From an uncultured Nitrososphaeraceae archaeon (GTDB taxonomy: Archaea; Thermoproteota; Nitrososphaeria; Nitrososphaerales; Nitrososphaeraceae): a DNA stretch of 57,002 nt. Where the stretch lies: positions 1 through 57,002 of the forward strand of contig CAVXZB010000027.1 of assembly GCA_963765895.1 (NCBI GenBank), read 5' to 3'. A program made the position numbers and the translations under genes. The notes beneath the pieces were generated by a model, which did no database searches, was not told the origin of the DNA, and saw nothing but the letters and a program-made list of their open reading frames with translations. This document shows, piece after piece, positions 5,874 through 49,580 of this stretch. Position 1 is the first letter of the stretch. Every line of letters begins with the position of its first letter.

Positions 5874-6575
5874 GTGAAATTAAGAGACATTACCAGGTAT
5901 CGGGTAATTGAAAGATACTTACGGCAAAGGTCTAAACAGACAAGACAAATTGATTCTTCCTCTTTTACTACTACGGATTCTAAAAATGAATTGGATTATT
6001 ATCATTTTGATCTTACCAAACCTCCAGAGATCTCTGACTACATTAAAAACAGATTTCTTCCCATATTCAGACAGTATAAGAATAACGCTAGACTAAACAC
6101 TCGCAGATTACGTATGTGGAGAGTTTCAATCATCGTTCTGACAATGTTTATGATAATATTTAATGTAATAGTTATATCAGGTAATAATAGCTCAAGTAAC
6201 AGATCCTCTTCAATCATTGCCATGGGAATTGTATCTTCTATTGCTGCTGCACTTATCCTTGGATTTACTGCATTTTTGCAATTGACTAAATCTCAAGAAA
6301 ACTGGCTTTTGTATAGCACGATATCTGAAAAACTAGAACGGGAATATAATCTGTTCAAGTTCAAAGGTGGTCCATATTCTTTATCTGCAACTAATGAACC
6401 AGATGATGCAAACAAAATTAATAAGTTATTTGTAGAAATCGTTGAAAATATTATTCTGACTCAAGGATCAGAACCTAGACCTACATATTCCTCTACGATT
6501 ACGACTGATACTATAACTACTACCAATCACCATGAGCCAACATCATCTCCGACAACAACTGCACAAGAGAAATAG
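5874..6575 (+). CDS. DUF4231 / SLATT-like two-TM protein
   Basis: Two TM helices followed by QENWLLYSTISEKLEREYNLF...PY...LFVEIVENII. Confidence 0.75.
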   Translation: MKLRDITRYRVIERYLRQRSKQTRQIDSSSFTTTDSKNELDYYHFDLTKPPEISDYIKNRFLPIFRQYKNNARLNTRRLRMWRVSIIVLTMFMIIFNVIVISGNNSSSNRSSSIIAMGIVSSIAAALILGFTAFLQLTKSQENWLLYSTISEKLEREYNLFKFKGGPYSLSATNEPDDANKINKLFVEIVENIILTQGSEPRPTYSSTITTDTITTTNHHEPTSSPTTTAQEK

Positions 6576-9426: not shown

Positions 9427-9691
9427 TTGATTATTTCAGAAATTATTCAAAAGTTGAGGACAACAAAGGTGAGGCAATGTAAAGGCAAGTATTATGATGA
9501 TGGTAAATTTTGCGCTGTCGGAGCAGTAATGCATGAGATATAGTTGGAATGGTGAAAGGGAAATGTGTACCTCAAGCAGGGAACATGTATCAGTATTTCA
9601 TGAAGATACTTTAAAAATAATAATCGCCCTAAACGATTTTGATGGAAAACATTTTTCTGAAATAGCAGACTCGCTAGAAAAAACGTATTAG
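9427..9691 (+). pseudogene. small virus-like protein, one frameshift
   Basis: MIISEIIQKLRTTKVRQCKGKYYDDGKFCAVGAV.../...IIALNDFDGKHFSEIADSLEKTY*; the Q-x-G..C-x-x-G / ND..F-x-EIAD-x-(L/I)E pattern is common in phage proteins. Confidence 0.5.
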
Positions 9692-9708
9692 CAGACAGGA
9701 TCTGATCG

Positions 9709-10101
9709 ATGATGGTTGATTTTCAATTAACATATGGAATGAAAAATGATGATCTGCTTAAAGAGATTCTAACGCGTGGAGTAAATAAAGATGATTTGCA
9801 TAAACGGATACACGAAAATTTATTTTTAAATTTGTTTAATGGATTTCCTCATAGACATGAATTAATAGATTCTAATATGCTTGGATATACGATTGTCTCC
9901 AGCGAGAATACCCCATGTACTAACGCTGCAAATCACATCAAGAACTGGGATTATAAGTGGATGTCTAAGAAATGTGTAACTCGTGAAGTAATAGCTGTTG
10001 ACAGGGCTAACAATTATGCGGTTATACAACATAATATATATCAGACACGTATCTGTGATGTGTGTCTTAGGGCATATATTTCCTCACTTCATCCAAACTA
10101 G
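9709..10101 (+). CDS. hypothetical protein
   Basis: 130-aa ORF with C-terminal CxxC. Confidence 0.5.
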   Translation: MMVDFQLTYGMKNDDLLKEILTRGVNKDDLHKRIHENLFLNLFNGFPHRHELIDSNMLGYTIVSSENTPCTNAANHIKNWDYKWMSKKCVTREVIAVDRANNYAVIQHNIYQTRICDVCLRAYISSLHPN

Positions 10102-10158
10102 GACGAGATTCTTTATTCCCCCAGTTATATTCTGTGTGGAATAAACAGCGATGATGAA

Positions 10159-10605
10159 ATGTACTTTCTGCATCCACTGTTTCGTGTGCCTGAAGAATTG
10201 ATAAATCAAGCTAGGAATCACAGCGACGTTATGTCTATAGTCAAGTGGTGCAACAAAGAAGACATGGGATTTGAAGGACGCATTCAAGGGGATATTATTT
10301 TTGCAGAGGTTGAACTAAGAATATCGGAAATATTAGCTCACAAAGATTACATAGACGAAGTGATTTATGAATTTACGATAGGTAAAAATACTAAAATGCG
10401 TACTGCGCTGAGTTTGCATACACATCCGGGGGAAAAATTTATGGCATGTGATTGGCAGCATGATTTGAAAAGTTTGATTAATTACATCAAGACTCATTCC
10501 GAGCGACAAGATGCAACCATCGGTAATAGGCATGAACTGAAAACTGACGGCATCATAACAGGAATACTAAACGAGACATTGCCATCTGAAATGGATATAT
10601 GGTAA
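10159..10605 (+). CDS. hypothetical protein
   Basis: 148-aa ORF co-oriented with upstream genes. Confidence 0.5.
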   Translation: MYFLHPLFRVPEELINQARNHSDVMSIVKWCNKEDMGFEGRIQGDIIFAEVELRISEILAHKDYIDEVIYEFTIGKNTKMRTALSLHTHPGEKFMACDWQHDLKSLINYIKTHSERQDATIGNRHELKTDGIITGILNETLPSEMDIW

Positions 10606-12524: not shown

Positions 12525-13427
12525 TTATGTGACACTTATCTCTCTTACGCTAGCATAACTAAAATCTGGGGCCGATACATCACTTATTTTGGGATTTGAA
12601 TGGACAGGCCCCTTCCATACTCCGTCAATTCTGACTGTGGTTAGTGATCCAATTGGTTTTATAATGTGGCCTTTTTGTAGTTGATTAGTATCATCAACTT
12701 CCCAATATTTCCTCCATAAATTTGGAGGCTTACCAATATCTGGTACTGGATAATCAATCCACATTTCCAGATGCCTATCTTTATTACTGTTAATAAGAAA
12801 TGAAATCATCTTTATTCCGATATATTTGCCAACGAGCCTTTCGCCTATCTTAAATTGTGTATCTTGATCATTTCCCCACATATCGGGATGAGGGCGTTCA
12901 ACTTCAAGAGTATTTCCATTTCCACCATTAACATTTACTTCACAATCGTAACATGTACCAGTTTTTGGATGATGGGAGCTATGTGATCCTCCTAAAATTT
13001 TTGTAGATATTGTGTCATCGTCTGGTTTAAAACCATTTATTTTTACATAGTATGTGACTTCTTGATTTACTATACCATCACTTCCTTGGTCTGCACTGCC
13101 TGCAGCATTAGTATATTCTACAGAAGGTTCATCTGGTTTGCCTGATCTGTAAGTTCGAATTTTTTTATACAATGTAAAATCCTTTAGAAATTTTCCACTC
13201 GAAGCATCAGGTTTTATTTTCAAGATTCCAAATTCATCCTTATCACCGGTACTAATTGATTCCTCTCTAAGACTGACTGGCCGATCTTCATTTATAATAA
13301 CTGGATCTTCCAGTTCAATATTGTGTTTTGCTGCAAAATCATCAAGTCGTGCTTGCATTTGAATTAGTTCATATTTTAGTTTCTGATATTCTGTAAATTC
13401 TTCTTTACTAAATTCGGTCTCTTCCAT
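12525..13427 (-). CDS. hypothetical protein with putative beta-jellyroll (polysaccharide-lyase-like) domain
   Basis: NQEVTYY...GKYIGIK...LEMWID...W..Y...VRID...SVREI, a pattern seen in Nitrososphaeraceae proteins. Confidence 0.55.
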   Translation of the reverse strand: MEETEFSKEEFTEYQKLKYELIQMQARLDDFAAKHNIELEDPVIINEDRPVSLREESISTGDKDEFGILKIKPDASSGKFLKDFTLYKKIRTYRSGKPDEPSVEYTNAAGSADQGSDGIVNQEVTYYVKINGFKPDDDTISTKILGGSHSSHHPKTGTCYDCEVNVNGGNGNTLEVERPHPDMWGNDQDTQFKIGERLVGKYIGIKMISFLINSNKDRHLEMWIDYPVPDIGKPPNLWRKYWEVDDTNQLQKGHIIKPIGSLTTVRIDGVWKGPVHSNPKISDVSAPDFSYASVREISVT

Positions 13428-13734
13428 GGATATTGTCTAGATGTCTATCTTAATTAGTTTTGATAACAGTCAGACTTTAAAGATAATGAGCAGTATTTAT
13501 TTTTAAATACTGAGATTAGCTCATTTATTATTTGATATCGTCTACTACACAGTCGCACTCATAGTTCAATATGTCACTTAATAAGCTATAAATTCATTAT
13601 GCACATCTCTATCATTAGACAAGGAAATAATTTATCAACGTTTGCGTATTTATGGCATATTTACTAGAAACCGTACAGCACTTCAAGGACATTCCGTCTC
13701 CTGATAGATATGTAAATGAATTCTTGTTGTCTTA

Positions 13735-13830
13735 ACCAGACTCAGTTCTATACATTTGATCTCTTAACCCAGAAAACCTTTTAATGCGATATGTTTCATA
13801 ACGTAAATAGAAGACACTATTTCTAGATGG
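13735..13830. repeat. element-derived repeat B (copies at ~22405-22475 and ~26920-27012)
   Basis: Shared CCAGAAA..TTTT.A.TGCGA.AT.TTTCATAAC.TAA.T.GAAG.CA.T.TTT. Confidence 0.75.
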
Positions 13831-13914
13831 CTGGACTCGGGATTTAGAGGTATTATAGACTGTTTATTGGTAGTAGGGGAAATGGTAGTTCATCAAACTG
13901 CTTGATTTAGTAAA

Positions 13915-14159: not shown

Positions 14160-14460
14160 AGGCACCGCGCGCATCTTGATGACAGTAGGTAGTTTTTCAT
14201 CTACTGCCTCATCGAATCTCTTATTAGGATATTCTTGGCGCTCTCTTCTGATTTTAGTTACTCCATTTAGATCTTTAGTATATATTCGAAGCAAGGCGTC
14301 TTTGCCCCTCTTCCTACACAACCTCAAACTTCTTGCCCATATCCACTAGAAAAATCGGGATCCGAAATGCTACCTCGGTACAATCCAAGAATTATGATCT
14401 GGAATGGATGACGACAGTGAGGTGATGGATAAAGAGTTTGGCGCGCCTAATGATAGGTAT
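14160..14460 (-). pseudogene. C-terminal relic of the Rep-like family (paralog of 45077-46013)
   Basis: IPDHNSWIV...LLRIYTKD...IRRERQEYPNK. Confidence 0.75.
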
Positions 14461-14830
14461 CTCATTTTAGATAAACGCTTTTGATATGAGTGTTTCATAT
14501 CGTTGATACAATGACTTCTTCCGATATAATTATACTTGACTTTACAAGAATCCGATATTGCATATTGCGTTAACCTACCGTATAAAAGAGAACTAAAATA
14601 CATAGTTCCAATTCTGATTGCTACTATCAATAGATACCATCAATCTATAGGGTGATCATATTCACAAGAAAATGGCTTGTTTCATGCTATTATTATCTTT
14701 TTACTTGACCATCCGAGATGTTAAACCAGACTGTACTGTTTAAAAGTTGAAATAGTAGATATTGAATGAAACTTCAGCATGATATCCTACCTTGACAGAA
14801 TAAACGGTTACACTTCGAGGTGAATCTTTA

Positions 14831-17920: not shown

Positions 17921-18734
17921 TTATGTGCGCAACTTTTCCTGTATAGCAATATCTAGTCTAACACCAGGATACTCTTGGCGCTCTCTTCTAATTCTAATTC
18001 CATTACTTTCCTTCATATCCTTTGTATAGATACGCAGAAGTGCGTGTTCTCCATCCTCCCATGTCATCTCAAATTTCTCACCTGCACACTCGCTTAAAGA
18101 ATCTGTACCAAAGTGCCACATTGTTACGATCCATGAGTTATGGTTTGGAATGTGAATTTGCTGCAAATGAGGATATTGTATGCGGGGAGCCTGTTACTGA
18201 TGCTAATAGTCTCTCCTCTACTGATGTCAGTAGATTTGACAAGCAAATAAGACCTTCATGATCAACAACTACTGGTTTCATGGAACAGGATACGATGACA
18301 CTGACAGTGTCAGAGTGGTGTACGACTGTCTTTGCCTCCATGTTATGCATACGGATGGGCAATAGAGAGATGTCTTTACTAACTTCATTAGGTATCAGCT
18401 CGGTATGGATACCACGAATTGTTGACCAGATCCCTTTAGTTTTAAATCTAAGGCGGATATCATGTACCGAGTGTGTTTCAGACGGTAAGTTATCGATAAA
18501 TGACACTGATGACAGTTGGGGGACCACCGTATGGTTATCTGTCATTCCTGGTTTAGATTTTGTAAAGTTTACTCCATTTAGGCTATAAAAATGCGGGACC
18601 TGAATATTACTCTAAAATCGCAAAAACAAAATGTTCATTTCTCGATTCGTACTAGTCTTTGCACTTCCATTTTCATTGGATGATCTACTTTGTCTTACCC
18701 ACCAAGTGGGTGAGCATGTACGTGTCATTGTCAT
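17921..18734 (-). pseudogene. Rep-like family paralog of 45077-46013, frameshifted with internal deletion
   Basis: Near-identical WIVTMWHFGTDSLSE..GEKFEMTWEDGEHALLRIY.KDMK...RRERQEYPG. Confidence 0.85.
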
Positions 18735-18960
18735 TGTTAATTTATCGATTCTGCACTCTCAGCATTACTATTTAAATTTCAATCAGATTTCTCTCAGAAA
18801 GATTAACATTTGCAGTAAATACAACCTCAGCGATCCCGATGTTTTTCTTATGGTGATCTCATATGGCAATGTAGGTCTTAAAATGAAACTTGAAATTGCT
18901 CTTGCATAGAGAACGACAATTTGTCGTTCTTCTTAAGTCTAGTCTTTTTTCTACTTGATT
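18731..18960 (-). pseudogene. relic of the 284-aa ORF family (paralog of 46010-46864)
   Basis: KNDKLSFS motif and conserved ATGACAATGACA stop/start junction with the Rep-like gene. Confidence 0.65.
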
Positions 18961-19132: not shown

Positions 19133-19901
19133 GTGAAAAAGGTTGCAACAAGTGGAAAATGCAGTTACTGCTCTCAGATTTTTTCTCAGAACATGATTGC
19201 CAAACATTTGCAATCATGTAAACTAAGGAAGGAATTGTCACCATTTTTAAAGAAAGGCCAATGTTCATCTCTCCTGGGAATCAGCGGTAAACAGTTTCAA
19301 GACTATTGGGCTTTTATCGAGGTCAACGGAAATATCTGTAGACTAAAGGACATTGACTCATTCCTTAGAAATTTATGGCTTGAATGTTGTGGCCACTTGA
19401 GTTCCTTTAAAATAAATGATCAAATATACGAATCTTTTCCCTATCCCATGTACTCTACTAAGAGTATGCAAATATCCGTAAATAAGATTTTAAAGGAGGG
19501 TATGATTTTTGAATATACATATGACTTTGGAAGCTCAACTGAACTTATAATCAAGGTTGTTTCCGCTAACGATTCACTTAATGATAATAACATAGGATTC
19601 TCCAGATACAAAAGCTTCAAAGATACCTCGACATGCCCGAGAAAAGAAATGCAAAGATAAGATGCTTCCTCCAGTCAAACTTATCGCCAGAAATGATTCT
19701 ATTGTATTTACTTGTGATGCATGTAAGCAAGCAATAGCAACAAATATCTGCTAAATTTGTCTCTATGAAAAAAGCAGAAGAGGAGCTTCTTTATGTGAAA
19801 ACTGCAAAAGACATCACAAATGTGGAGAAGATGTGTTTTTACCCATAGTTAACTCTCCACGTTCAGGAGAATGTGGTTACACAGGAAGGTTAGTTAAGTA
19901 A
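19133..19901 (+). pseudogene. pRiA4b ORF-3-like / Zn-binding conserved protein, frameshift plus internal stop
   Basis: LRNLWLECCGHLSSF, YTYDFGSST, ARN...C..C...HKCGE...LPIVNSPRSGECGY. Confidence 0.75.
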
Positions 19902-20067: not shown

Positions 20068-22374
20068 GTGGTAAACTCAATTACTGAACAGAATGGACCC
20101 CAACCTCAACAATACTTCAGCCATCCTTTAATAAAAAATGATAGCATTGAATTCAGATTATACCAAAATAACATATTTGAGTCTGTCAAAAATAAGAACG
20201 CCCTAGTAATTCTTCCAACTGCTTTGGGTAAGACAGTTGTAGCAATACTTGTTTGTGCGGAAATTCTGTATAATTACAAGTCAAAGAGAGTCTTGATAAT
20301 GGCTCCAACCAAACCTCTCGTATCTCAACATACGACATCATTTTTATCAGGTAATGAAGATGCCTGAAGATAGTATAGCAGTAGTAACAGGAAAGAACTC
20401 TCCTCAATCTAGAAAGGCTATCTGGAATCAAAAAGAATTAAGAATTATTTTTGCTACACCAGAGGTAGTCAAAAATGACCTTATAGAGAGGAGGTTATCG
20501 CTTGATGAATTTGGCTTGTTAGTCTTTGATGAAGCTCATAGGGCAGTAAAAGATTATGCCTATACCTTAATAGCCAAGTCCTACGTTCGACAATCATCAC
20601 ATCCTGTAATTCTAGCCATGACAGCAAGCCCTGGATCAGAGCAAGGCAGGATTGATGAAGTTTGTAATAACCTATCCATTGAAAAAATAGAATACAGGAA
20701 TGAAGATGATGTAGATGTAAAGGAGTATATCAATACTATCGATACGACTTGGAAATGGTTTACTATTCCTCAGGAGTACAAATACATTAGTACAAGTCTT
20801 CGTGCCATGCTTGAAGACAAACTTCAGTTTCTTATAAAAAGAGGACTACTGATAAAAAAACATCCGAAGTGGATATTTAAGAGCGATCTCCTTAAACTAG
20901 GAGAAGAGATCCAGTATAAGATAAATGCAAGCCGGGAAGAACTAAGAGGATCACTTTATTCAGCCTTGGTGCAACAGTCGTCAGCCCTTACCCTTATGTA
21001 CTGTGCAGAACTTATAGAAAGCCAAGGATCTCAATCATTAAAAGCCTTTCTAGAAAGGATTGAAAGGGATGGTGGCAAGGCTAATCGATCCCTGCTAAAT
21101 GATAATAGGATAAAGGAGATTCAAGCACTTTTAAACAGTCTAAAGATAGAGCATCCTAAAGCAAAATATCTTGTAGAACATTTAAATCAATATTATGACA
21201 CATTTCAGAACAATAGGAATAATAACGATAGCAGTAAAACTAAGTTGACTAGCACAAGACCAAAAGCTCTTGTTTTCACCCATTATAGAGACACTGCAAG
21301 AAAGGTTGTCGAAATTTTGACTGAAAATGGCATAAAAGCATCAAGATTTGTAGGCCAAGCAAAAAGAGAGATAGATATGGGAATGGACCAGAATGAACAA
21401 TCAGCTATTCTGCAATCCTTCAGAGATGGAGAATTTGATGTCTTAGTAGCGACCTCTATTGCTGAGGAAGGACTTGATATTCCACAAGTAGATCTAGTTG
21501 TGTTTTATGAACCAATACCTAGTGAGATAAGATATATACAGAGAAGGGGAAGAACTGGACGAAAGTCATCTGGTAGTGTTATAATACTTGCAGCAAAGGA
21601 TACCATTGACGAACGATATCTTTATGCAAGCAAGAGACGTATGGAGAAGATGAAACAGATACTTTCTACCGTCAACATGACGTTAAAGCCTGTTCAGAGA
21701 GCAGATATCCTAGCAGATCCCATGACAGCTGATGAGATATCATCTTTTGAATTCAAGCCTACGATATTAGGCAAAGGGGTTGATAAGAAGCTATCATCCA
21801 CTATTGGCATCACAAGAGATGCTGATGATTTACTACCATCAATAGCATCAACTAATCGTTTAGTCAGAACAAGGGCAATAGATAGTGAGGATAATGACAA
21901 AAATAAGAAAATTGGCGGATTGCTCTCGCATGAGTCTGGTACCGCTACTAATGGATTTAGAAAAGCGGTGGATTCATGCAGCGAAAAGAATTCATACATT
22001 AATAGCAAAAAGTGGAAGACAAGCATTAGATGTAGATATAATTCAAGAGACCTTTGCATTTGAAGATTCTGTTTTACTAGAGGCATTGAATAAGCTTGAA
22101 AAACTTAATACGATACAATGGCTTGATGATACACGAGTAATCCTCTCTGAAAATTTGGCAAAGGTTGCTGGCGAGCACAATTGATGTGTATGTTGAAAAA
22201 ATCGTACAAGGTGGAGCATTAGTTCTAGTAAACGAAAAATGGCATGCTAGATTAAATCACTACGATTATGAAGGTCCACGAGAATTACTTAGAAAAGGAT
22301 CGGAATTCAGAGTTGTAGGCGAACTATATCATGATGAAGGTGTGTTTAGTCTCAGAGTAAAACAGATAGTATGA
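20068..22374 (+). CDS. hef: Hef/Mph1 (FANCM-like) SF2 helicase without nuclease domain, split by ~3 indels
   Basis: LPTALGKT, APTKPLV, DEAH, TASPG, ATSIAEEGLDIP, QRRGRTGR. Confidence 0.85.
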
Positions 22375-33254: not shown

Positions 33255-33490
33255 GTTTTGTCATCAAATTTGATCTTACCCTATAACTGGATTCATAGAT
33301 CATTGTAACTGCGCCATTTATTTGGGCTTTCAGTTTGCCTAGCTCTTCATGGTTAATGAGTTGTCTAGACATCTTTAGCAATTGGCGCGCGCATTTCTAC
33401 TAACGTGTTCAGTCTTCTCATCTATTGCCTCATCAAATCTTTTATTAGGATATTCTTGACGTTCCCTGCGAATTCTAGTCTCTCCATTCA
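33255..33490 (-). pseudogene. relic: Rep-like C-terminus followed by SWIM-gene N-terminus
   Basis: RIRRERQEYPNKRFDEAIDEK then MSRQLINHEELGKLKAQINGAVTMIYESSYRVRS; same order as 13915-14460. Confidence 0.75.
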
Positions 33491-33890: not shown

Positions 33891-35586
33891 ATGTCATCAA
33901 AGAAAAATGGATCAAAAATCCCTATCCAGGGAAGTGAACGTCAGCCACTTGTTGGCTCGCATGCTGTTGGACCAATAGATCCTAATCAACAGATCGAAGT
34001 CACTGTGAGACTTCGTCGTGCAGGATCAGATGATGTAGAATCAAGAATACAAAAAATGGCAAATCAGTTACCTTCTGACCGTCACTACCTCACAGCTGAA
34101 GAGCTAGAAGCACATCATGGAGCTGACCCAGATGATGTAGCAAAAGTAGAACGATTCGCTTTGAATAATGGTCTGCAAGTAGTGAGAACTGATAATACCA
34201 AACGTGCTGTGGTGTTAAAGGGATCTGCAAGTGCTATGAATTCAACTTTCGGAGTCGAATTAAAGCAGTATCAATATTCTGAAGGCTCATACCGAGGACG
34301 TACTGGACACATACACGTGCCAACCGAAATTGCTTCTATAATAGAAGGGGTGTTTGGACTTGACGATAGACCACAAGCTGAGCCCCATTTCAGACATCAC
34401 AAATCTTCCAAAAGAGTGCAATCATCTGAAATATTAGCAATTTCTAATGGAACGTTTACTCCAGTTGAGCTGGCTAAACTTTATAACTTTCCTACAGATA
34501 GAAACGGCACTAAATTAGATGGTACTGGCCAGTGTATCGCGATATTAGAATTGGGTGGAGGTTATCGAGATTCTGATCTAGATACTTATTTTTCAAAGCT
34601 GGGAATTGCCAAACCTGATATATCAAGTGTACCTGGTACCCGTGGAGCTGATAATAATCCTACAGGAAATCCAAAGGGTCCAGATGGCGAAGTTATGCTC
34701 GATATTGAGGTAGCTGCAGCCGTGGCGCCAAAGGCAAAAATAGTAGTTTATTTTGACAAACCAGATGATCGAGGTTTCCTTGCAGCTCTTAACAGGGCAA
34801 TCCACGATACCTCAAATAAACCATCTGTGATCTCTATTAGCTGGGGCAAACCGGAAGAATTTTGGACAGCGCCTAACCGACAAGCTTTCGACGGTATGTT
34901 GCAAGATGCTCGCTGCTTTAGGAATAACTGTATGTTGTGCTTCCGGTGATAATGGCTCTTCCGATGAGAGGCCTTCAAATGATGGTCAAGGTATTCCCGA
35001 TGGCAATGCACATGTAGATTTTCCTGCCTCTTCTGCTTTCGCATTAGCCTGTGGTGGTACTCATTTGACAGCTTTCAATGGTTCAATTAATAATGAAATA
35101 GTTTGGAACGACCCTGATGGCGGAGCAGGTGGTGGGGGAATCAGCGCTTTTACTCAACGGCCAGACTATCAACGAAATTTAGTATTGCCTCTTTCAGTTA
35201 ATGGAGTGAACTTTGATGGACGAGGCCTTCCAGATGTGTCAGGCGATGCGTCACCACTTACAGGCTACCAAGTTCGAGTAGACGGACGAGACTTTCCAAT
35301 CGGGGGAACCAGTGCAGTAGCTCCATTGTGGGCTGGTTTGATAGCGTTAATCAATCAAGCAATAGGAACAAGAGTGGGCTTTCTAAATACGCTACTTTAC
35401 ACACGCATTGGTCCAAATGGAGTACTTCGTGACATAACTAATGGAAATAATGGTATAAACAATGTCAAAGTGATAGGTAGTGATCAATTAGTAGACATAG
35501 CAGGATATTCAGCAGAGACTGGTTGGGATGCATCTACTGGATGGGGTTCTCCAGATGGTAAAAAGATCATGACCAGTTTAATATGA
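33891..35586 (+). CDS. S53 sedolisin/kumamolisin-like peptidase with pro-domain (frameshift near 34915)
   Basis: GEVMLDIE (E/D), ASGDNGS, PDVSGDA, GGTSAVAP, GWDASTGWGSP. Confidence 0.9.
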
Positions 35587-41148: not shown

Positions 41149-42538
41149 TTAACATCCTTCGAGTATCTTCAATGCATCTTTTTCTCCTTGTTCAATTAGC
41201 ATCTTTATGGAATCATGAGTAAAGTCTGTAGCTTTGCTGGCATAATCCGCTTCCTTACCGGGTACTAGCATCTACGTCAGATGCACGTTCTATTCTTATT
41301 ACCTGTTTTAATGTGAATTTGCCTTTTATTAGATCTTTGTATTTTTCCCGCCTAACTTCTCGTGTTTTACTTTTTTCTTCAGCAATCGTTAGAAACTGCT
41401 CAAACCCATTTTGAAATACCATACCCTCATTTCTATTAGTAAATTTATGTATTAATTGTATGGCGCCAAGCAATGTTTCTTCCAAATCATTGTAGTCTGT
41501 TACAATATCTGTTACCATTTCATCATAGCCAGAATTCCTGTCTGAATATGTTATATCATTAAATCTATCATTAACCCCGTCATAGTCAGTTGGAATAACA
41601 TCTTTTTTGGAAGGATGTACGTTTACTATATATACATCGAGATCTGGAATTTTAGCTTTAACATTATCTACTACTTTAGTCCAATACTCCCTATGTGCCT
41701 GCAAGAGTTCTCTAAATGGTGTATTATTTAAAAAACCTCCATCATAGAAACTTCTTCCACCTATTGCCCTGAACTTATAGAAAATAGGTATCGTACCGCT
41801 TGCCATAACGTGATCAATTGTAATCCCATCACTTTCATACACTGAATTTTCAGAATCATCTTTTGTATGATAACTATCAAATGTCACTGTCTTTCCTTCA
41901 GATACGTCTACACTAATGACAAGTAGACGTGGTTCTCTTCTACTCCAACTAGTGGCTATTCTTAACTTTTCATTATCTTTATCTTTTGAATATCCTTCGA
42001 TGGTATTTTGTAAGGGATCGATATCATGTAGATACCATTTATATAATGGATCTGAATCAGCATACTTGTAATCAACTTCTGCCTCTGGAGCCGAACATAC
42101 GTTTGGAGTTCCTTGCTCTTTGTACGCTTTTACTGAATAATATCTTCTCAGAGCCTCTTTAGATGCCCTAAACATTTTTTGTTTTTCTTTATCATTCAAC
42201 CATTTGCTGATATCAGGAGTGGACGAAAGACCATATTGCTGGTTCCCCCAAAAATCTTCAAGTATTTGTACTGCTTCTTTCCAGCTCTTATGTCTGTTGA
42301 CTACATTGCTTACAAGCACTGCGGCGTTCATTGCACCCATGGAACTGCCTGCAACAATATCAAATAGCGGCCCATTTTCCGTGTCGTTTCCACCACTTTC
42401 AAGAAGCTTTTTACACAACACTTTCAATACACCTACTTCATAAGCACCTAATGCTCCCCCTCCTTGGAGTACCAATGCCCTCTGTCTATCAGGAATATTT
42501 TGGTCCTTAGAGCGTTTTGAAGAATTTTCCTCTGTCAT
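41149..42538 (-). CDS. patatin-like phospholipase (frameshift near C-terminus)
   Basis: LQGGGALGAYE, GSSMG, DGG..NNTP. Confidence 0.9.
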
Positions 42539-44104: not shown

Positions 44105-44468
44105 TCAATAGCACTAAAATGACACCGATGACAATGATGACAGTTGGGATACCACCGTATGGTTATCTGTCATCTCACGTTTAGGCTTTGAAAATAACTC
44201 CTCTTAAGCTATAGAAGGCGGGGCCAGAAGAGAACAACCACTGTACGTCACAATTTTTCATCAGAATTGAAATCTTGTTTCTGAATGTCCCATAGGGTTA
44301 TCTTATATCTTTTACCATCTACTTCAAAGTCTAAAAAATCACGAAAACAAAATGGTCTCCTCGATTAGCACTAGTCTTTGCATATGCCTCTTCATTGCAT
44401 AATCTAGCTTTATCCTATCCATTAATTTTTTCCCAAAATTCTCAGCACCCCGTAGGTGTCATTGTCAT
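44105..44468 (-). pseudogene. N-terminal relic of Rep-like family
   Basis: Matches 45660-46013 (CCATCTACTTCAAAGTCTA, ACCACCGTATGG). Confidence 0.75.
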
Positions 44469-45010
44469 CGTTAATTTATCGGTTCGAATTCTCAGTCTGT
44501 TCTTTATTTGGATATTAGTTATACTCTTATTAACAAAGTCAGATTTCGCGATGAAGGAAATGCTTTTGACATGCTTACTCCAAAACGCCTTCAGATGGTC
44601 GCATAGAGTATCATATTGAAGTAGAAATAACAACTCGGATTTATCTTCTTGGTCAATATTGGGGCGCGCATTTAATTTGCATTTTTAGTTCCTCCACTTT
44701 TGCATGTTATTGGTTACTCTCGCTTGACTTAGACTCTAGCTCTAACGCATTGTCTGCAGGAAATTAGATCCTTCATTAGCAGATCCTTCATTTTTTATAG
44801 TGTTCGAGTCAGAACCTGGTATTGCTACTTTTCGGCTACTGAATTTCCGTGAGCATTTATCATAAGTGGGAGAGCCTCCTTCTCTTGTTTTAGAGAACGA
44901 CAATTTGTCGTTCTTCTCCTCCTTTTGCCTGTGGGATTTGTGTATGCTTTTGCATTTTGTCTTAATTTAATACAGCCAAAGAACGAACAATACTTCAATA
45001 TTTTTCCCAC
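44465..45010 (-). pseudogene. relic of 284-aa ORF family
   Basis: NDKLSFS palindrome at 44894-44914 and the same 3' junction. Confidence 0.6.
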
Positions 45011-45076
45011 AGACGTGATCAGAGGACACTAGTTGCTAACATGCAGGGTGAGTCGAGGGGGCGCGCAAAAATCTGA

Positions 45077-46013
45077 TCATGTGTGCAACTTCTCATGTAT
45101 AGCAACATCTAACCTTACACCGGGATATTCTTGACGCTCTTTTCTGATCTTAATTCCATTACCATCTTTCATGTCCTTTGAATAGATGCGAAGTAATGCA
45201 TGTTCTCCGTCCTCCCATGTCATCTCGAATTTGTCACCCGTATATTCACTTAAAGAATCTGTGCCAAAGTGCCACATCGTTACAATCCAAGAACCATGAT
45301 CCGGAATTGGACTTGACGCGGATGATGACAGTGACAGTGATGGAGGCGCGCATTCTATATATCGTAACAATCTTTCTTCTGCACGAGTTAAAGCATTAGA
45401 AAGTCGTACAAGGCCCCTGATATCCACTGCAATAGGATTTAGAGAGCATGCAACAATGACACTAACAGTATCTGTATGATGTATAGTAGTCTTAATGGTA
45501 AGGTCGTGAGTTTCTATAGGATCTAGTGATACATCTTTACTTACCTCATTTGGTTTTAATTCTGGATGATTAGTGGTTATGACACTCCAGATATTATCAA
45601 CCTTGAACCTAAACCGTATATCATGTAAGGCATGTTTGTCTGCGGGTAAAGTATCGATGAATGACACTGATGACACAGATGACAGGGAAGAGACCACCGT
45701 ATGGTGGCCTGTCATTCCCTTTCTGGGTTTAGTAAAGGGATAGCCTTTTAGACTGTAAAATGCAGGACCAGAAATGTATTCTAGTTGCGCGTAACCACTT
45801 CTTACATATTGCGAAATCTTATTTCTATATGTTCCATATGCCATACCATATTTCTTGCCATCTACTTCAAAGTCTAGAAAATCAAGATAGCAAAACGGTC
45901 TATTCTCGACTCGTCACTATCCTTTGCATATGAACCTTCATTGGATAATCTAACTTTGTCTTGCCCATTACATGATTCACCAGACTGGGAATACCATTAC
46001 CTGTCATTGTCAT
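45077..46013 (-). CDS. wHTH + putative divergent Rep_trans-like replication initiator (frameshift near 45915)
   Basis: Start overlaps upstream stop (ATGA); RPFCYLDF..GTYRNKIS...AFYSLKG wHTH-like; VTMWHFGTD and LLRIYSK...RKE. Confidence 0.5.
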
Positions 46014-46864
46014 TGTTCATTTGTAGATTCTAGGCTGTCAGCACCTACTACTTCAATTTCAGTTAGATCCCTCTTGGCAAGATCAACCTTCGCAGTGAAT
46101 ATGACTTTAGAGACTCCTTTGTTCCTACTATAACAAGCACTCATTTGGCGACGTAGATCTTCAAACGAAACCTGAAACCTGACATCAAAGAATCTATCAC
46201 CACCAGAGGCATTCGATCCCAATTTAGATTTTAGATCGACTACTTGTGATTGTAATATCAGATTCTCTTTTGATTTAGACGCTAAATCCTGCTGAAGTCT
46301 TGCAATTTTCGTTTCAAACTCCTTGCTCCCATCTTGTTCTAGCAACTGTGGGTCTGAACTAGTAAGTGGGGAAGACGCCCCATTTGCTTCATTCAGTTGA
46401 ATGTCAGATGGATCTTCATGAATACATCTAGCTCCAAAATCAGATCTTTCATTATTTACGTCGTCACCATTATTCGAACTAGAATTTGTAACATCTGCTG
46501 ATTCAGTTACTGTGCTCCCGTCTGCATGAACCAACAATTCGGATGTGTCCTGTCTTTTATCTCCAGAAATCGACATTTTGTCGATCTTCTTTTTGGGTCC
46601 AGTCTTACGCTTCCATTTATCGAGACAATATCGTTCAATATCTCTGGTGGAGATGAGTTTTTGCGCTATTTCTTCGTGCAATACATTTTTAATTTCTTCA
46701 CAGACGCTTTCACTATTTGAAACCTTAGCCTCGAATGCTAATCCTAATTTGATAATTAGTCCTTTGCGCTTGCCTAACATCATATTGAATTCTTTTTTGA
46801 CTTCATCGATGATTGCATCCAGGTCTGAATTGTCATTGCTGATAACGTTATTATTGTCACTCAT
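46010..46864 (-). CDS. element-associated HTH/coiled-coil protein (284 aa)
   Basis: Intact ORF; ISTRDIERYCLDKWK HTH-like segment; coiled coil. Confidence 0.7.
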   Translation of the reverse strand: MSDNNNVISNDNSDLDAIIDEVKKEFNMMLGKRKGLIIKLGLAFEAKVSNSESVCEEIKNVLHEEIAQKLISTRDIERYCLDKWKRKTGPKKKIDKMSISGDKRQDTSELLVHADGSTVTESADVTNSSSNNGDDVNNERSDFGARCIHEDPSDIQLNEANGASSPLTSSDPQLLEQDGSKEFETKIARLQQDLASKSKENLILQSQVVDLKSKLGSNASGGDRFFDVRFQVSFEDLRRQMSACYSRNKGVSKVIFTAKVDLAKRDLTEIEVVGADSLESTNEQ

Positions 46865-47213
46865 ACACTATCTCTCCTCTTGTTTGTTACTTGCGGCTAA
46901 ATTATGGCATCTACATTTGCAGATAATTTTTGACGAAAAAACAGTATTCTCGTAGTAGCCAGTACATAAATTACAGTGATCAGTCAAACATTTTTCTACT
47001 TCTATCACGATTTTTTCAGTATTATCGCTCATAATTTTTTGTTCCCTCTTGCACCATAGCGTTTTCGAGCAGACGATTGATGTACCTTGAACGCGGGATA
47101 TCCCCTCGCCTTCTATCCATTTGCTCCAGCAAATATTTTGAAATGCTGAAAGTTATGATATTGGTCATTATAACTATATTAAATAAAATTAATATATGAG
47201 CATTTTATGATAG

Positions 47214-48128
47214 ATGTATAGGTATCATGAACTAAATATGCTACACAAATCAATCAGAAGGGAGTTGACTGAACAGAATTGGTTACAGGTTGAGAAAAAT
47301 GATAGCAATCCCAGACTAAAATTAAGAAGACTTAAGGATCAATCCATTAGAGCAATCAATGATCTGTCACTTATAGCAAGAAAGTTGCCTGAACAAACGC
47401 AAACTGAGATATTCGATTATGAAGTATTAAAGAGGCTCATTGAGGCGATTCTTAATGTAAATAGTGATGAGCATTCAGACTTTACCAATGCCGGTTCAGA
47501 TCCTAGACGAACATATTTGGGGGCGCTATTAGCAGAGGAAGGAATAAAGCTCTGTACACGGGCATATATTACGCAAAATCGAGAGACGCCCGTATTAACA
47601 GATGCGACAGTAGATCAGCTTAATAAGACTATAAAAATATGCAATGAAATCGCCTATGTGATGGATCTTCCAGGTAGGACGAAAGTGAGGGATAATCTAC
47701 AATATCAATTTAATTGGAATAGGGTTCCAGGACCCGATGAAGATAAATTTGTAAAATTCATCGAAAGCATATTTGGATCTATCTATGAAAACTTCAAAGA
47801 TGATAATCTTTTAACATACGAAATTAAGAAAGAGAGCCCTGCTACCCATGGCGCAAGTTTGGAAGAATTATCAGATCTTTTTAGGGCAACTGGCAAAAAG
47901 GAAGAAGATATGATATCTAGATTAAGAGCATCAAAAATAGTACTGAATGTAATTGACATGAATAATGAGATAATGGCCACCTATTCTCTTATACTAAGAT
48001 TTAGTGCAAAGGCAATTAAGCTAACATATGAAGTACTTGGTAAAAAAGGTCAAATAGATCCTACGGATATAATTGTCAAACAAGATTATGGCAACTTTTA
48101 CATTTACAGAAGAAAGTTAGCGAGATAA
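47214..48128 (+). CDS. hypothetical protein between integrase and replication module
   Basis: 304-aa intact ORF; FNWNRVPGPD C-terminal motif. Confidence 0.7.
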   Translation: MYRYHELNMLHKSIRRELTEQNWLQVEKNDSNPRLKLRRLKDQSIRAINDLSLIARKLPEQTQTEIFDYEVLKRLIEAILNVNSDEHSDFTNAGSDPRRTYLGALLAEEGIKLCTRAYITQNRETPVLTDATVDQLNKTIKICNEIAYVMDLPGRTKVRDNLQYQFNWNRVPGPDEDKFVKFIESIFGSIYENFKDDNLLTYEIKKESPATHGASLEELSDLFRATGKKEEDMISRLRASKIVLNVIDMNNEIMATYSLILRFSAKAIKLTYEVLGKKGQIDPTDIIVKQDYGNFYIYRRKLAR

Positions 48129-48134
48129 TACAAA

Positions 48135-49580
48135 TTATTCAGAAGAAAATGCTGTCTTATAGATTCCGCTTTGATACAACTGCTTTGCAAATTCGACTTT
48201 ATTCTTACCATCCATATTTCCAAGAGCTGTAATTAGCGCGCGCATCTGAGACTGCATCGTATTAAATTTCCCTTCTATAACTGTCAGTTTATCATCCTTC
48301 TTTTTTTGTTCGTCTAATGTCTCATTGTACGCATCATAAGTTAATACCATCCGACAATGCGCGCAGAACTTGCTGTCTGGTTTATTGGGTTCATTGCAAT
48401 TAGGACACTGCTTTGGTCTTAGCGCAACAGATAGTTTTTGATCCTTTGTAACTATACCATATGCTTCTAACAGACTCTCACTTGCTTCATTTCCAAAATA
48501 GTGAAGATATTTCTGAGGCATATTGGAGTTAGTCGTCCAACCCGCGTACTGACGCAGCGTATGCTCCTTTAGTATCTTGGATTTATCCGTCAATGCGCTA
48601 TGCCTTCTTACATAGGGATTCCATGGCTTCTTCAGTAATTCTTCTATTTTCGCCTTATCTTCTGATGGAACATTTGGATCGCTTAATAATTTCGGGAATA
48701 GTGCATTCTTATAACTACCATAAATCTGTGATAACGATGATATAGCCAGAATTCTACCTATACTCTTACGATTTCCACATAATAAAATCGTATTAGGGTT
48801 TGCCGACTGCGGGTGTTCGTGATTTAAATAATCTTTGATGTATGGGATTGAGTCTATTAGTGGGATGGACCTACTTCCAGTCTTTCCGTTAATTAACACC
48901 TCTGCATATTGTCTATTCCCAGTGGTTTTGAATACAATATCTTTTATCCTCAACTTTAATAATTCATGTGGCCTACAACCAGTATCGCGAGACATAGCAT
49001 GATAACACTTTATTCTTTTAGAAGGGCAATACTTTAGGAATAGCAGATCATCCTCAACTGTCCAAAGATCTGTAGGCTTGTAAATTGATTGTTCTTTTCG
49101 CTTAAGCTGTAATACATTCTGAATCACTTCTGGTTTTGGTCGTTTCCTTGGTTCAATGCCAGGATAATATAACCATCTGAAAAATCTAATCAAATGCATT
49201 CGGTATATATTGTAAGTTCCGATCCATCTATGCATGGGATCTAATGTCTCTGGTTTGCGGTAACTTTCTAGATATGAAATTATATCGTCCCTACTTATAG
49301 CGCTAAAAGGATGATTGCTATTAAATTTAGAGAACGTACATAGTAGTTTAATTACATCGCCTCTGTAGTGATCAGAGGGATTGACCTCCATTCTTAATGC
49401 TTCAATGTAACTTCCTATTGTGAATGCATTATCTTTTGATATTGCATAAAGTAACTTGGAAAATTCAAGACTTAAGCCTGAGGAGATGTCTTGAATTTTT
49501 CTTTCTAAAGTAATACCATGATGACGTTCAGTATTGATCTTGTTTTGCCTTTCTGCTGTTAATGCAATATTGTTCCTCAA
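48135..49580 (-). CDS. tyrosine recombinase/integrase with C-terminal zinc ribbon
   Basis: TGCRPHE (R), GKTG (K), YVRRHSA (R), AGW, KYLH (Y); CPNC...FCAHC. Confidence 0.95.
   Translation of the reverse strand: MRNNIALTAERQNKINTERHHGITLERKIQDISSGLSLEFSKLLYAISKDNAFTIGSYIEALRMEVNPSDHYRGDVIKLLCTFSKFNSNHPFSAISRDDIISYLESYRKPETLDPMHRWIGTYNIYRMHLIRFFRWLYYPGIEPRKRPKPEVIQNVLQLKRKEQSIYKPTDLWTVEDDLLFLKYCPSKRIKCYHAMSRDTGCRPHELLKLRIKDIVFKTTGNRQYAEVLINGKTGSRSIPLIDSIPYIKDYLNHEHPQSANPNTILLCGNRKSIGRILAISSLSQIYGSYKNALFPKLLSDPNVPSEDKAKIEELLKKPWNPYVRRHSALTDKSKILKEHTLRQYAGWTTNSNMPQKYLHYFGNEASESLLEAYGIVTKDQKLSVALRPKQCPNCNEPNKPDSKFCAHCRMVLTYDAYNETLDEQKKKDDKLTVIEGKFNTMQSQMRALITALGNMDGKNKVEFAKQLYQSGIYKTAFSSE

Follow-up and report, generated by a model that had tools for sequence, protein, structure and literature searches.

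A small integrase-linked multicopy gene of Nitrososphaeraceae as a candidate Rep_trans-like nicking enzyme

A multicopy gene without annotation lies at position 45077 of a 57,002-nucleotide (nt) stretch of DNA from an uncultured Nitrososphaeraceae archaeon (contig CAVXZB010000027.1 of assembly GCA_963765895.1; the whole stretch is hereafter called the window), and the question raised by this locus is what kind of protein the gene encodes. An initial annotation had proposed a divergent Rep_trans-type rolling-circle initiator fused to a wHTH (winged helix-turn-helix). We read the family to which the gene belongs as a minimal and very divergent relative of the Rep_trans nicking-joining enzymes and, on balance, lean towards its protein being a tyrosine nicking enzyme that starts replication. 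This view is built on the observed fold class, residue conservation, domain order, synteny and patchy multicopy distribution, from which we infer the mechanism.

The copy at 45077 was present as an open reading frame (ORF) of 255 amino acids (aa) on the minus strand (45077-45844), with the motifs VTMWHFGTD, LLRIYSK and RKERQEYP in its translation. The span 45077-46013 first given to the gene held only as far as 45844, since 45845-46013 was interrupted by stops. Homology to the family N-terminus extended on the same strand through a degraded coding part (45845-45919, VENRPFCYLDFLDFEVDGKKYG) with one TGA and one TAG within the match. Because these stops interrupt the homology, the copy is short of about 40 residues at the N-terminal end of the winged helix, and its first Met corresponds to a conserved internal Met of the family. 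Having lost the start of its winged helix, it is probably a pseudogene.

A word-indexed protein search returned 440 proteins at E ≤ 1e-3, with no Pfam domain in any of the 120 family matches listed, and an exhaustive search gave 660 representatives of 50% clusters (92 below 1e-30). The named family proteins among the matches listed belonged to Nitrososphaeraceae and, among named matches, the family is confined to Nitrososphaerales. Family proteins usually measured 289-305 aa and consisted of an N-terminal winged helix (residues 1-77), a Ser-rich linker and a compact TBP-like domain (residues 105-289; about 290 aa in all), thus bearing out the proposed wHTH fusion. No relative of the family protein was found in phage, plasmid and IMG/VR collections.

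When the C-terminal domain of the window copy (residues ~66-255; 45080-45649, minus strand) was modelled alone, the prediction (predicted local distance difference test, pLDDT, 91; predicted TM-score, pTM, 0.84) displayed two modules rich in strands, with a helix closing each, in the TBP-like topology of a crescent beta-sheet with two pseudo-symmetric modules. Foldseek matched this model to TBP (E 4e-4; TM-scores 0.49/0.51) and to 4cij (E 1.1e-2), and the full model to 4cij at rank 9 (E 1.4e-3); RepDE and RepSTK1 were within the ten best of 48,161 chains. Among viral models the matches were TBP-like proteins of giant viruses and proteins of Inoviridae, and a search of the ESM Atlas with the C-terminal domain, which gave eukaryotic lipid-transfer-like clusters alone (scores ≤0.89, low recognition), was uninformative. 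The predicted C-terminal fold was the TBP-like crescent shared with Rep_trans, not an unrelated one, and on this point the initial annotation stood.

In Rep_trans, as described in the text of Carr 2016, the nucleophile Y191 is located on strand 10 with R189 and K193 alongside, and the metal ligands D46 (strand 1), D142 (strand 6) and E214 (strand 11) likewise point to the inner face; in the RepC sequence of pT181 the equivalents are found as D in TRLDLAFD, Y in RIYNK and E in RVE. The family presented H-D-I-R on the first strand of module 1, W-I-V-T-M-W-H-F-G-T-D on the first strand of module 2, L-L-R-I-Y-S-K on the penultimate strand and I-R-x-E-R-Q-E on the last; judging from strand order and TBP-like connectivity, these four strands would be neighbours. 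In R255-I-Y257-x-K259, on the penultimate strand (252-261), the Tyr is accompanied by Arg(-2) and Lys(+2), and from its register and strand order Y257 would be the equivalent of Y191. In the window copy the motifs, all encoded on the minus strand, are RIYSK (45176-45190), with the candidate catalytic Tyr221 (codon 45182-45184) between R219 and K223; MWHFGTD (45257-45277), on the strand that opens the second module, with His192 and Asp196 as candidate metal ligands; and RKERQE (45128-45145), on the last strand, with Arg234 and Glu236 of R-x-E.

Conservation, counted among 269 family proteins in P0070 numbering, was very high for Y257 (225/226, the exception being a 116-aa fragment), R268 (214/214), K259 (220/224), E270 of R-x-E (207/214), H228 at the position of D142 (234/239), D232 (235/238), H112, which forms H112-D113 on the first strand (238/241), and C171 (255/260). 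Ten distant homologs from other genera and families, obtained by tblastn at 23-35% identity, kept the Tyr, the Lys, D232 and H112 in all cases, and R268 and E270 in all eight that reach so far. The tyrosine on which the initial annotation depended was thus conserved in near and distant members. Position 228 was His in 8/10, Glu in 1/10 and Asp in 1/10 of them, a pattern expected of a metal ligand equivalent to D142; the Glu or Asp in two of these homologs lends support to the earlier proposal that H stands in for the first D of the Rep_trans motif.

The same residues bear on the possibility that the family is a transcription regulator or repressor, whose winged helix would bind an operator (e.g., the 21-bp dyad described below) and whose TBP-like domain would cleave no strand and only form oligomers, bind a ligand or touch the DNA a second time. 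A non-catalytic domain is not expected to hold Tyr, Arg, Lys, Arg, Glu, His and Asp near-invariant at 23-35% identity, and these residues also hold the active-site order and strand register of Rep_trans. Moreover, the elements already encode small RHH-like, AbrB/MazE-type and zinc-ribbon proteins suited to regulation. We therefore consider a regulatory function possible but unlikely.

Genomic context was studied in 72 related loci of public genomes. Homologs of the integrase, grouped as one cluster, were located at a median of 2.7 kb upstream of the gene on the same strand; they appeared in 30 of the 48 loci whose upstream sequence spans 3.5 kb or more, and in 19/21 of those with a gene of at least 240 aa, which confirms the integrase link. 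The window integrase itself matched PF00589 below the cut-off, whereas integrases beside distant homologs were above it. Transfer RNA (tRNA) genes abutted the integrase in five loci (L020, L035, L038, L042, and L090) and one was found about 250 nt beyond it in L084. Between integrase and gene, small proteins were encoded (RHH-like by eye, AbrB/MazE-type, zinc ribbons), together with an additional coiled-coil protein in close relatives, which corresponds to the 284-aa ORF of the window; downstream genes varied (SWIM zinc finger, RadA-like ATPase, ParB-methylase). The family gene is the single conserved large partner of the tyrosine integrase in small integrated elements, often beside tRNA genes. 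No recognised initiator, polymerase or helicase appeared among the Pfam-named neighbour clusters, several clusters staying without a name, and this leaves the family gene as the candidate for the start of replication. Neither exact search nor blastn-short yielded att repeats of the tRNA ends, the locus contigs had no terminal overlaps, and no hairpin downstream of the gene was common to the loci. Conserved words downstream of the gene turned out to be a small SWIM zinc-finger gene (PF04434, 21.2 bits), an ORF observed behind the gene in L057 (3534-3785), L003, L004, L006, L007, L011 and L055; its conserved words also occurred ~60-215 nt past the stop of the gene fragment at 14184 in the window.

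A candidate DNA site was found within the coiled-coil gene as a 21-bp dyad, ARANCGANN-N3-NNTCGNTYT. It occurred three times in the window against 0.01 expected (0/100 shuffles reached three): as AAATCGACATTTTGTCGATCT within the 284-aa gene (46567-46587), as a perfect dyad AGAACGACAATTTGTCGTTCT in a remnant of a 284-aa-type gene (44894-44914), and as an identical perfect dyad upstream of the gene copy at 17924 (18910-18930). It was also present in 10/78 loci, once per locus save for a second site in L013 and, where its location was compared, inside the coiled-coil gene and upstream of the family gene. Pairing was seen in 95.8% of the cells when 16 sites were aligned, as compared to 81.8% in shuffles, and the three arm positions left free by the search pattern had changes on both sides at all three, the dyad family thus presenting compensatory changes. 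The dyad could serve a dimeric protein as its binding site or belong to an origin.

Comparisons with known families at the sequence level were performed with the window protein and 65 diverse full-length members. No match was obtained in Pfam and PHROGs, and none to PF25227 or to the TBP Pfam family at E ≤ 1; the best PHROGs value for the 65 members (E 0.024) corresponded to an entry without function, and the match of one member to 'replication initiation protein' (E 0.14) was noise. In six-frame searches, PF02486 was absent from all 41 genomes (Bacillus subtilis control positive). Searches with PF25227 found it in none of 301 genomes of the phylum, including that of the window (Haloferax volcanii control positive). 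The family profile gave just two chance matches in PDB sequences (E 2.3). Since the tests of sequence membership fail for PF02486 and PF25227, we class it as a separate, smaller family of the Rep_trans structural kind. The best local hhalign alignment with a RepC-family profile set LLRIYSK..RKERQ against FIRIYNKK..WRVEIE; 0/40 column shuffles reached its score of 23.4 and one reached 23.0, whereas the global mode produced a meaningless alignment and was discarded. This profile had little depth, combining the RepC family with two proteins each from Enterococcus and Staphylococcus, because tblastn of RepC against the phage collection found no match.

Several results weigh against a nicking enzyme of the Rep_trans kind. 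TBP outscored Rep_trans in the fold search, neither the window protein nor the 65 members matched PF02486 at E ≤ 1, and the hhalign comparison with the shallow Rep_trans profile was marginal (P 0.028, probability 1.8%). In addition, the 45077 copy is itself broken at its N-terminus, and no circular junction appeared in four sequencing runs, where the two joints matched the internal partial duplication and paralogs. The best DNA runs contained ≤0.21 of the words, as short contigs, and no RNA run was listed as containing the sequence. Taking both sides together, the proposal of a divergent Rep_trans initiator stood as to fold class, Tyr conservation and the order and register of the motifs, and fell short in the Pfam and profile-profile comparisons.

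If the family protein is indeed a nicking enzyme that starts replication, the element would be excised and the winged helix would bind a dyad within it. The R-I-Y-x-K Tyr, which lies in the concave sheet on its penultimate strand, would then cut one DNA strand and become covalently attached, and a metal would be coordinated by the R-x-E Glu (last strand), the W-H-F-G-x-D His/Asp (first strand of module 2) and the His-Asp of module 1 (first strand); the free 3'-OH would prime rolling-circle replication by host enzymes. A bolder extension, which we consider doubtful, is that these elements are the first rolling-circle replicons of ammonia-oxidising archaea, with a minimal, ~190-aa Rep_trans-like nuclease whose metal site mixes His, Asp and Glu and which the N-terminal winged helix directs, and with sites within coding sequence, namely the covarying dyad of the upstream gene for binding and the DNA of the Ser-rich linker as a hot spot of Rep- or integrase-mediated breakage. 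Such a hot spot would account for the many 5'-truncated copies.

Truncation was frequent. The genome of the window (4.9 Mb, 88 contigs) contained 31 six-frame matches, in agreement with the multicopy nature first ascribed to the gene; only one of them, in contig 48, was full-length and open, the rest being fragments or carrying stops. Across the order a match was obtained in 20/251 genomes (11/56 of the same family, 6/57 of another family), a patchy distribution like that of mobile elements. Beside the one intact copy (locus L001), a putative integrase-like gene (12627-13834), assigned by eye and position, and a coiled-coil gene (9537-10398) were each split into two ORFs, and the contig 48 element is therefore also decaying. 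Among 88 gene copies uncut by contig ends, 66 retained the 3' end, and the starts of truncated copies clustered at residues 88-108 in the Ser-rich linker (15/88 copies) and at 207-218, the onset of homology falling at nearly identical nucleotides in several copies. This clustering has three possible explanations, namely recombination within the DNA of the linker, use of the conserved internal Met, and alignments that break off where linkers vary. The linker DNA read GTGGTCTCTTC..TGTCATC..TGTCATT (loci L055, L009, L014, L010, L011, and L012, and genome contigs C72 and C76), and N-terminal remnants stopped at the Ser-rich linker too. Many database proteins of 190-240 aa (P0026, P0040, P0064, P0079, and others) spanned the TBP-like domain alone, and in L045 and L046, both large chromosomal contigs, the short form was placed behind AT-rich non-coding DNA; a short form without winged helix may be real.

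The retained 3' ends and the starts at the linker could also reflect protein-mediated DNA breakage, in which case the same chemistry might fill another role, that of a MOBT-like relaxase nicking oriT for mobilisation or of a strand transferase by which the element is moved or rearranged. According to the text of PMC9371924, MOBT relaxases (RelSt3, Orf20 of Tn916) are alike in the order of their parts (N-terminal HTH, flexible linker, Rep_trans-type catalytic domain of PF02486), and their bind site is distant from the nic site. MOBT proteins are dimers, and the repeat to which they bind is an inverted one; in contrast to the family they are bacterial, match PF02486 and belong to conjugative elements. 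No family of the conjugation or transfer apparatus was recognised among the Pfam-named neighbour clusters, of which several lack a name, and movement is already provided by the integrase, so that we regard this role as improbable. Highly improbable is a chromosomal, domesticated or decaying family without current mobile function and with a convergent or chance resemblance to Rep_trans: the single full-length open copy among 31, the failure to find a free replicon or virus with the gene in the above collections and contig-end overlaps, and the non-significant sequence-level tests would fit it, but full-length open copies with strongly constrained residues exist in many genomes, the integrase link holds from 78% to 23-35% identity, and the distribution is patchy.

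Compared with known systems, the family shares with Rep_trans (RepC/RepD/RepDE, RepSTK1; PF02486) the crescent TBP-like sheet with its two pseudo-symmetric modules, a strand with R-x-Y-x-K ahead of one with R-x-E, a putative metal-ligand position on the first strand of module 2, all in equal order and register, a DNA-binding domain in one polypeptide and, if the nicking reading is right, an initiator that is the sole replication part encoded by the element. It differs in a smaller domain (~190 aa, ~4+4 strands) without match to the Pfam model, in the His at the D142 position, in where its DNA-binding domain sits (an N-terminal winged helix vs. a C-terminal helical domain in Rep_trans), in its archaeal host and in the link to an integrase. 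To our knowledge, the invariant Cys-Ser of the family has no counterpart in Rep_trans. TBP, a single-copy basal factor, shows no sequence match, whereas the family carries invariant Tyr/Arg/Lys/Glu/His/Asp on its concave strands and its gene is multicopy, mostly decayed, integrase-linked and patchy.

The main text of PMC13107129 (NAR 2026) describes in Rep-Arvir/DUF7845 (RepSNJ2 of the pleolipovirus SNJ2) an archaeal TBP-fold that is Rep_trans-like by structure only, with a wHTH fusion, an invariant tyrosine, integrase-bearing elements and a Foldseek pattern of TBP plus Inoviridae Rep, as in the family. In contrast, its catalytic domain is N-terminal, measures ~300 aa vs. ~190 aa and precedes a central wHTH, whereas the family has the wHTH first and no third domain; KHYYM takes the place of RIYxK, and the family has no PF25227 match. 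Neither 'Nitroso' nor 'Thaumarch' occurs in that main text, whose supplementary taxon tables might include such proteins, and no paper containing both 'Nitrososphaera' and 'Rep_trans' was found in the full-text literature. Cryptic integrated elements of Thaumarchaeota such as NitUzo-E2 are similarly very small, with an integrase, a wHTH protein and few hypothetical genes, and the text of Krupovic 2019 (PMC6563490) suggests the wHTH protein as a possible replication starter. By analogy, the family would work most like a Rep_trans nicking enzyme, with a MOBT-like order of parts and a biology like that of Rep-Arvir of SNJ2. If this is true, the recently recognised archaeal Rep_trans-like initiators would be extended to Nitrososphaerales with the smallest version of the catalytic fold. 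We know of no plasmid or genetic vector for ammonia-oxidising archaea, and a self-replicating element of small size, its initiator being defined, would therefore be a starting point for one. The missing replication gene would also be named for the small cryptic integrated elements described in the text of PMC6563490, and the Rep of SNJ2 has been made into shuttle vectors according to that of PMC13107129.

As for the window itself, the order along the minus strand was integrase (49580-48135), a 304-aa ORF on the other strand, a 54-aa ORF, the 284-aa ORF with the dyad, and the gene (45919-45077). Three ORFs thus intervene between gene and integrase, and the earlier statement that the gene lies two genes from an integrase has to be corrected. 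The integrase (48135-49580, minus strand) is a 481-aa tyrosine-recombinase-like protein with a zinc ribbon, scoring 20.8 bits with PF00589, below the cut-off. The 304-aa protein (47214-48128, plus strand) belongs to an unknown family with homologs in L015 and L035, and the 54-aa ORF (46868-47032, minus strand) is Cys-rich. The 284-aa coiled-coil protein (46010-46864, minus strand), directly upstream of the gene, was kept beside it in close relatives (14 loci).

Six-frame motif searches of the window located MWHFG at 45277 and 18121, RIYSK at 45190, RIYTK at 18034 and 14288, and R[KR]ERQE at 45145, 17989, 14249 (RRERQE) and 33470 (RRERQEYP). Together with tblastn of the 255-aa ORF, whose scores for the window paralogs are far beyond chance, they confirmed the motif copies reported at 45077, 17921, 14160-14460 and 33440-33490, all paralogs lying on the minus strand. 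The match at 17924-18605 (E 5e-80) ran in two frames, and this copy (17924-18691) is therefore frameshifted; its N-terminus is degraded and its 76 C-terminal residues are 83% identical. A C-terminal fragment at 14184-14465 (E 2.5e-17) retained RIYTK and RRERQEYP with in-frame stops, a relic of 23 residues (RIRRERQEYPNKRFDEAIDEK) remained at 33411-33479 (match 33414-33476, E 2.8e-4), and a further match at 44117-44294 (E 8.6e-7; region 44114-44485), absent from the initial annotation, was also detected. The 45077 region is one nearly complete but damaged element plus the remnant of a second, and further relics are found at 17924-18930, 14184-14465 and 33411-33479.

A partial direct duplication related 44118-44485 to 45660-46030 (spacing ~1543 nt, identity 73-85%). 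GC-rich words of the GGCGCGC type were observed in and behind the element (44658, 45340, 48232, and 45050-45060), the G+C content of the window being 31-42%; similar words were found just upstream of linker-start partial copies in L009 and L014, and in L014 a GC-rich word was placed ~100 nt past the stop of the preceding copy. Elsewhere, the window encoded a DUF4231/SLATT-type 2TM protein and a patatin-like phospholipase (5874-6575 and 41255-42538), a PRiA4_ORF3-like protein (19133-19660) and a helicase with an apparently incomplete N-terminal motor part (20354-22063; DEAD match from profile position 78), a gene content that fits a variable, island-like region. Finally, the overlapping ORFs 33891-34949 and 34906-35586, with a pro-kumamolisin activation domain and a subtilase-like fragment, look like a peptidase gene split by a frameshift.
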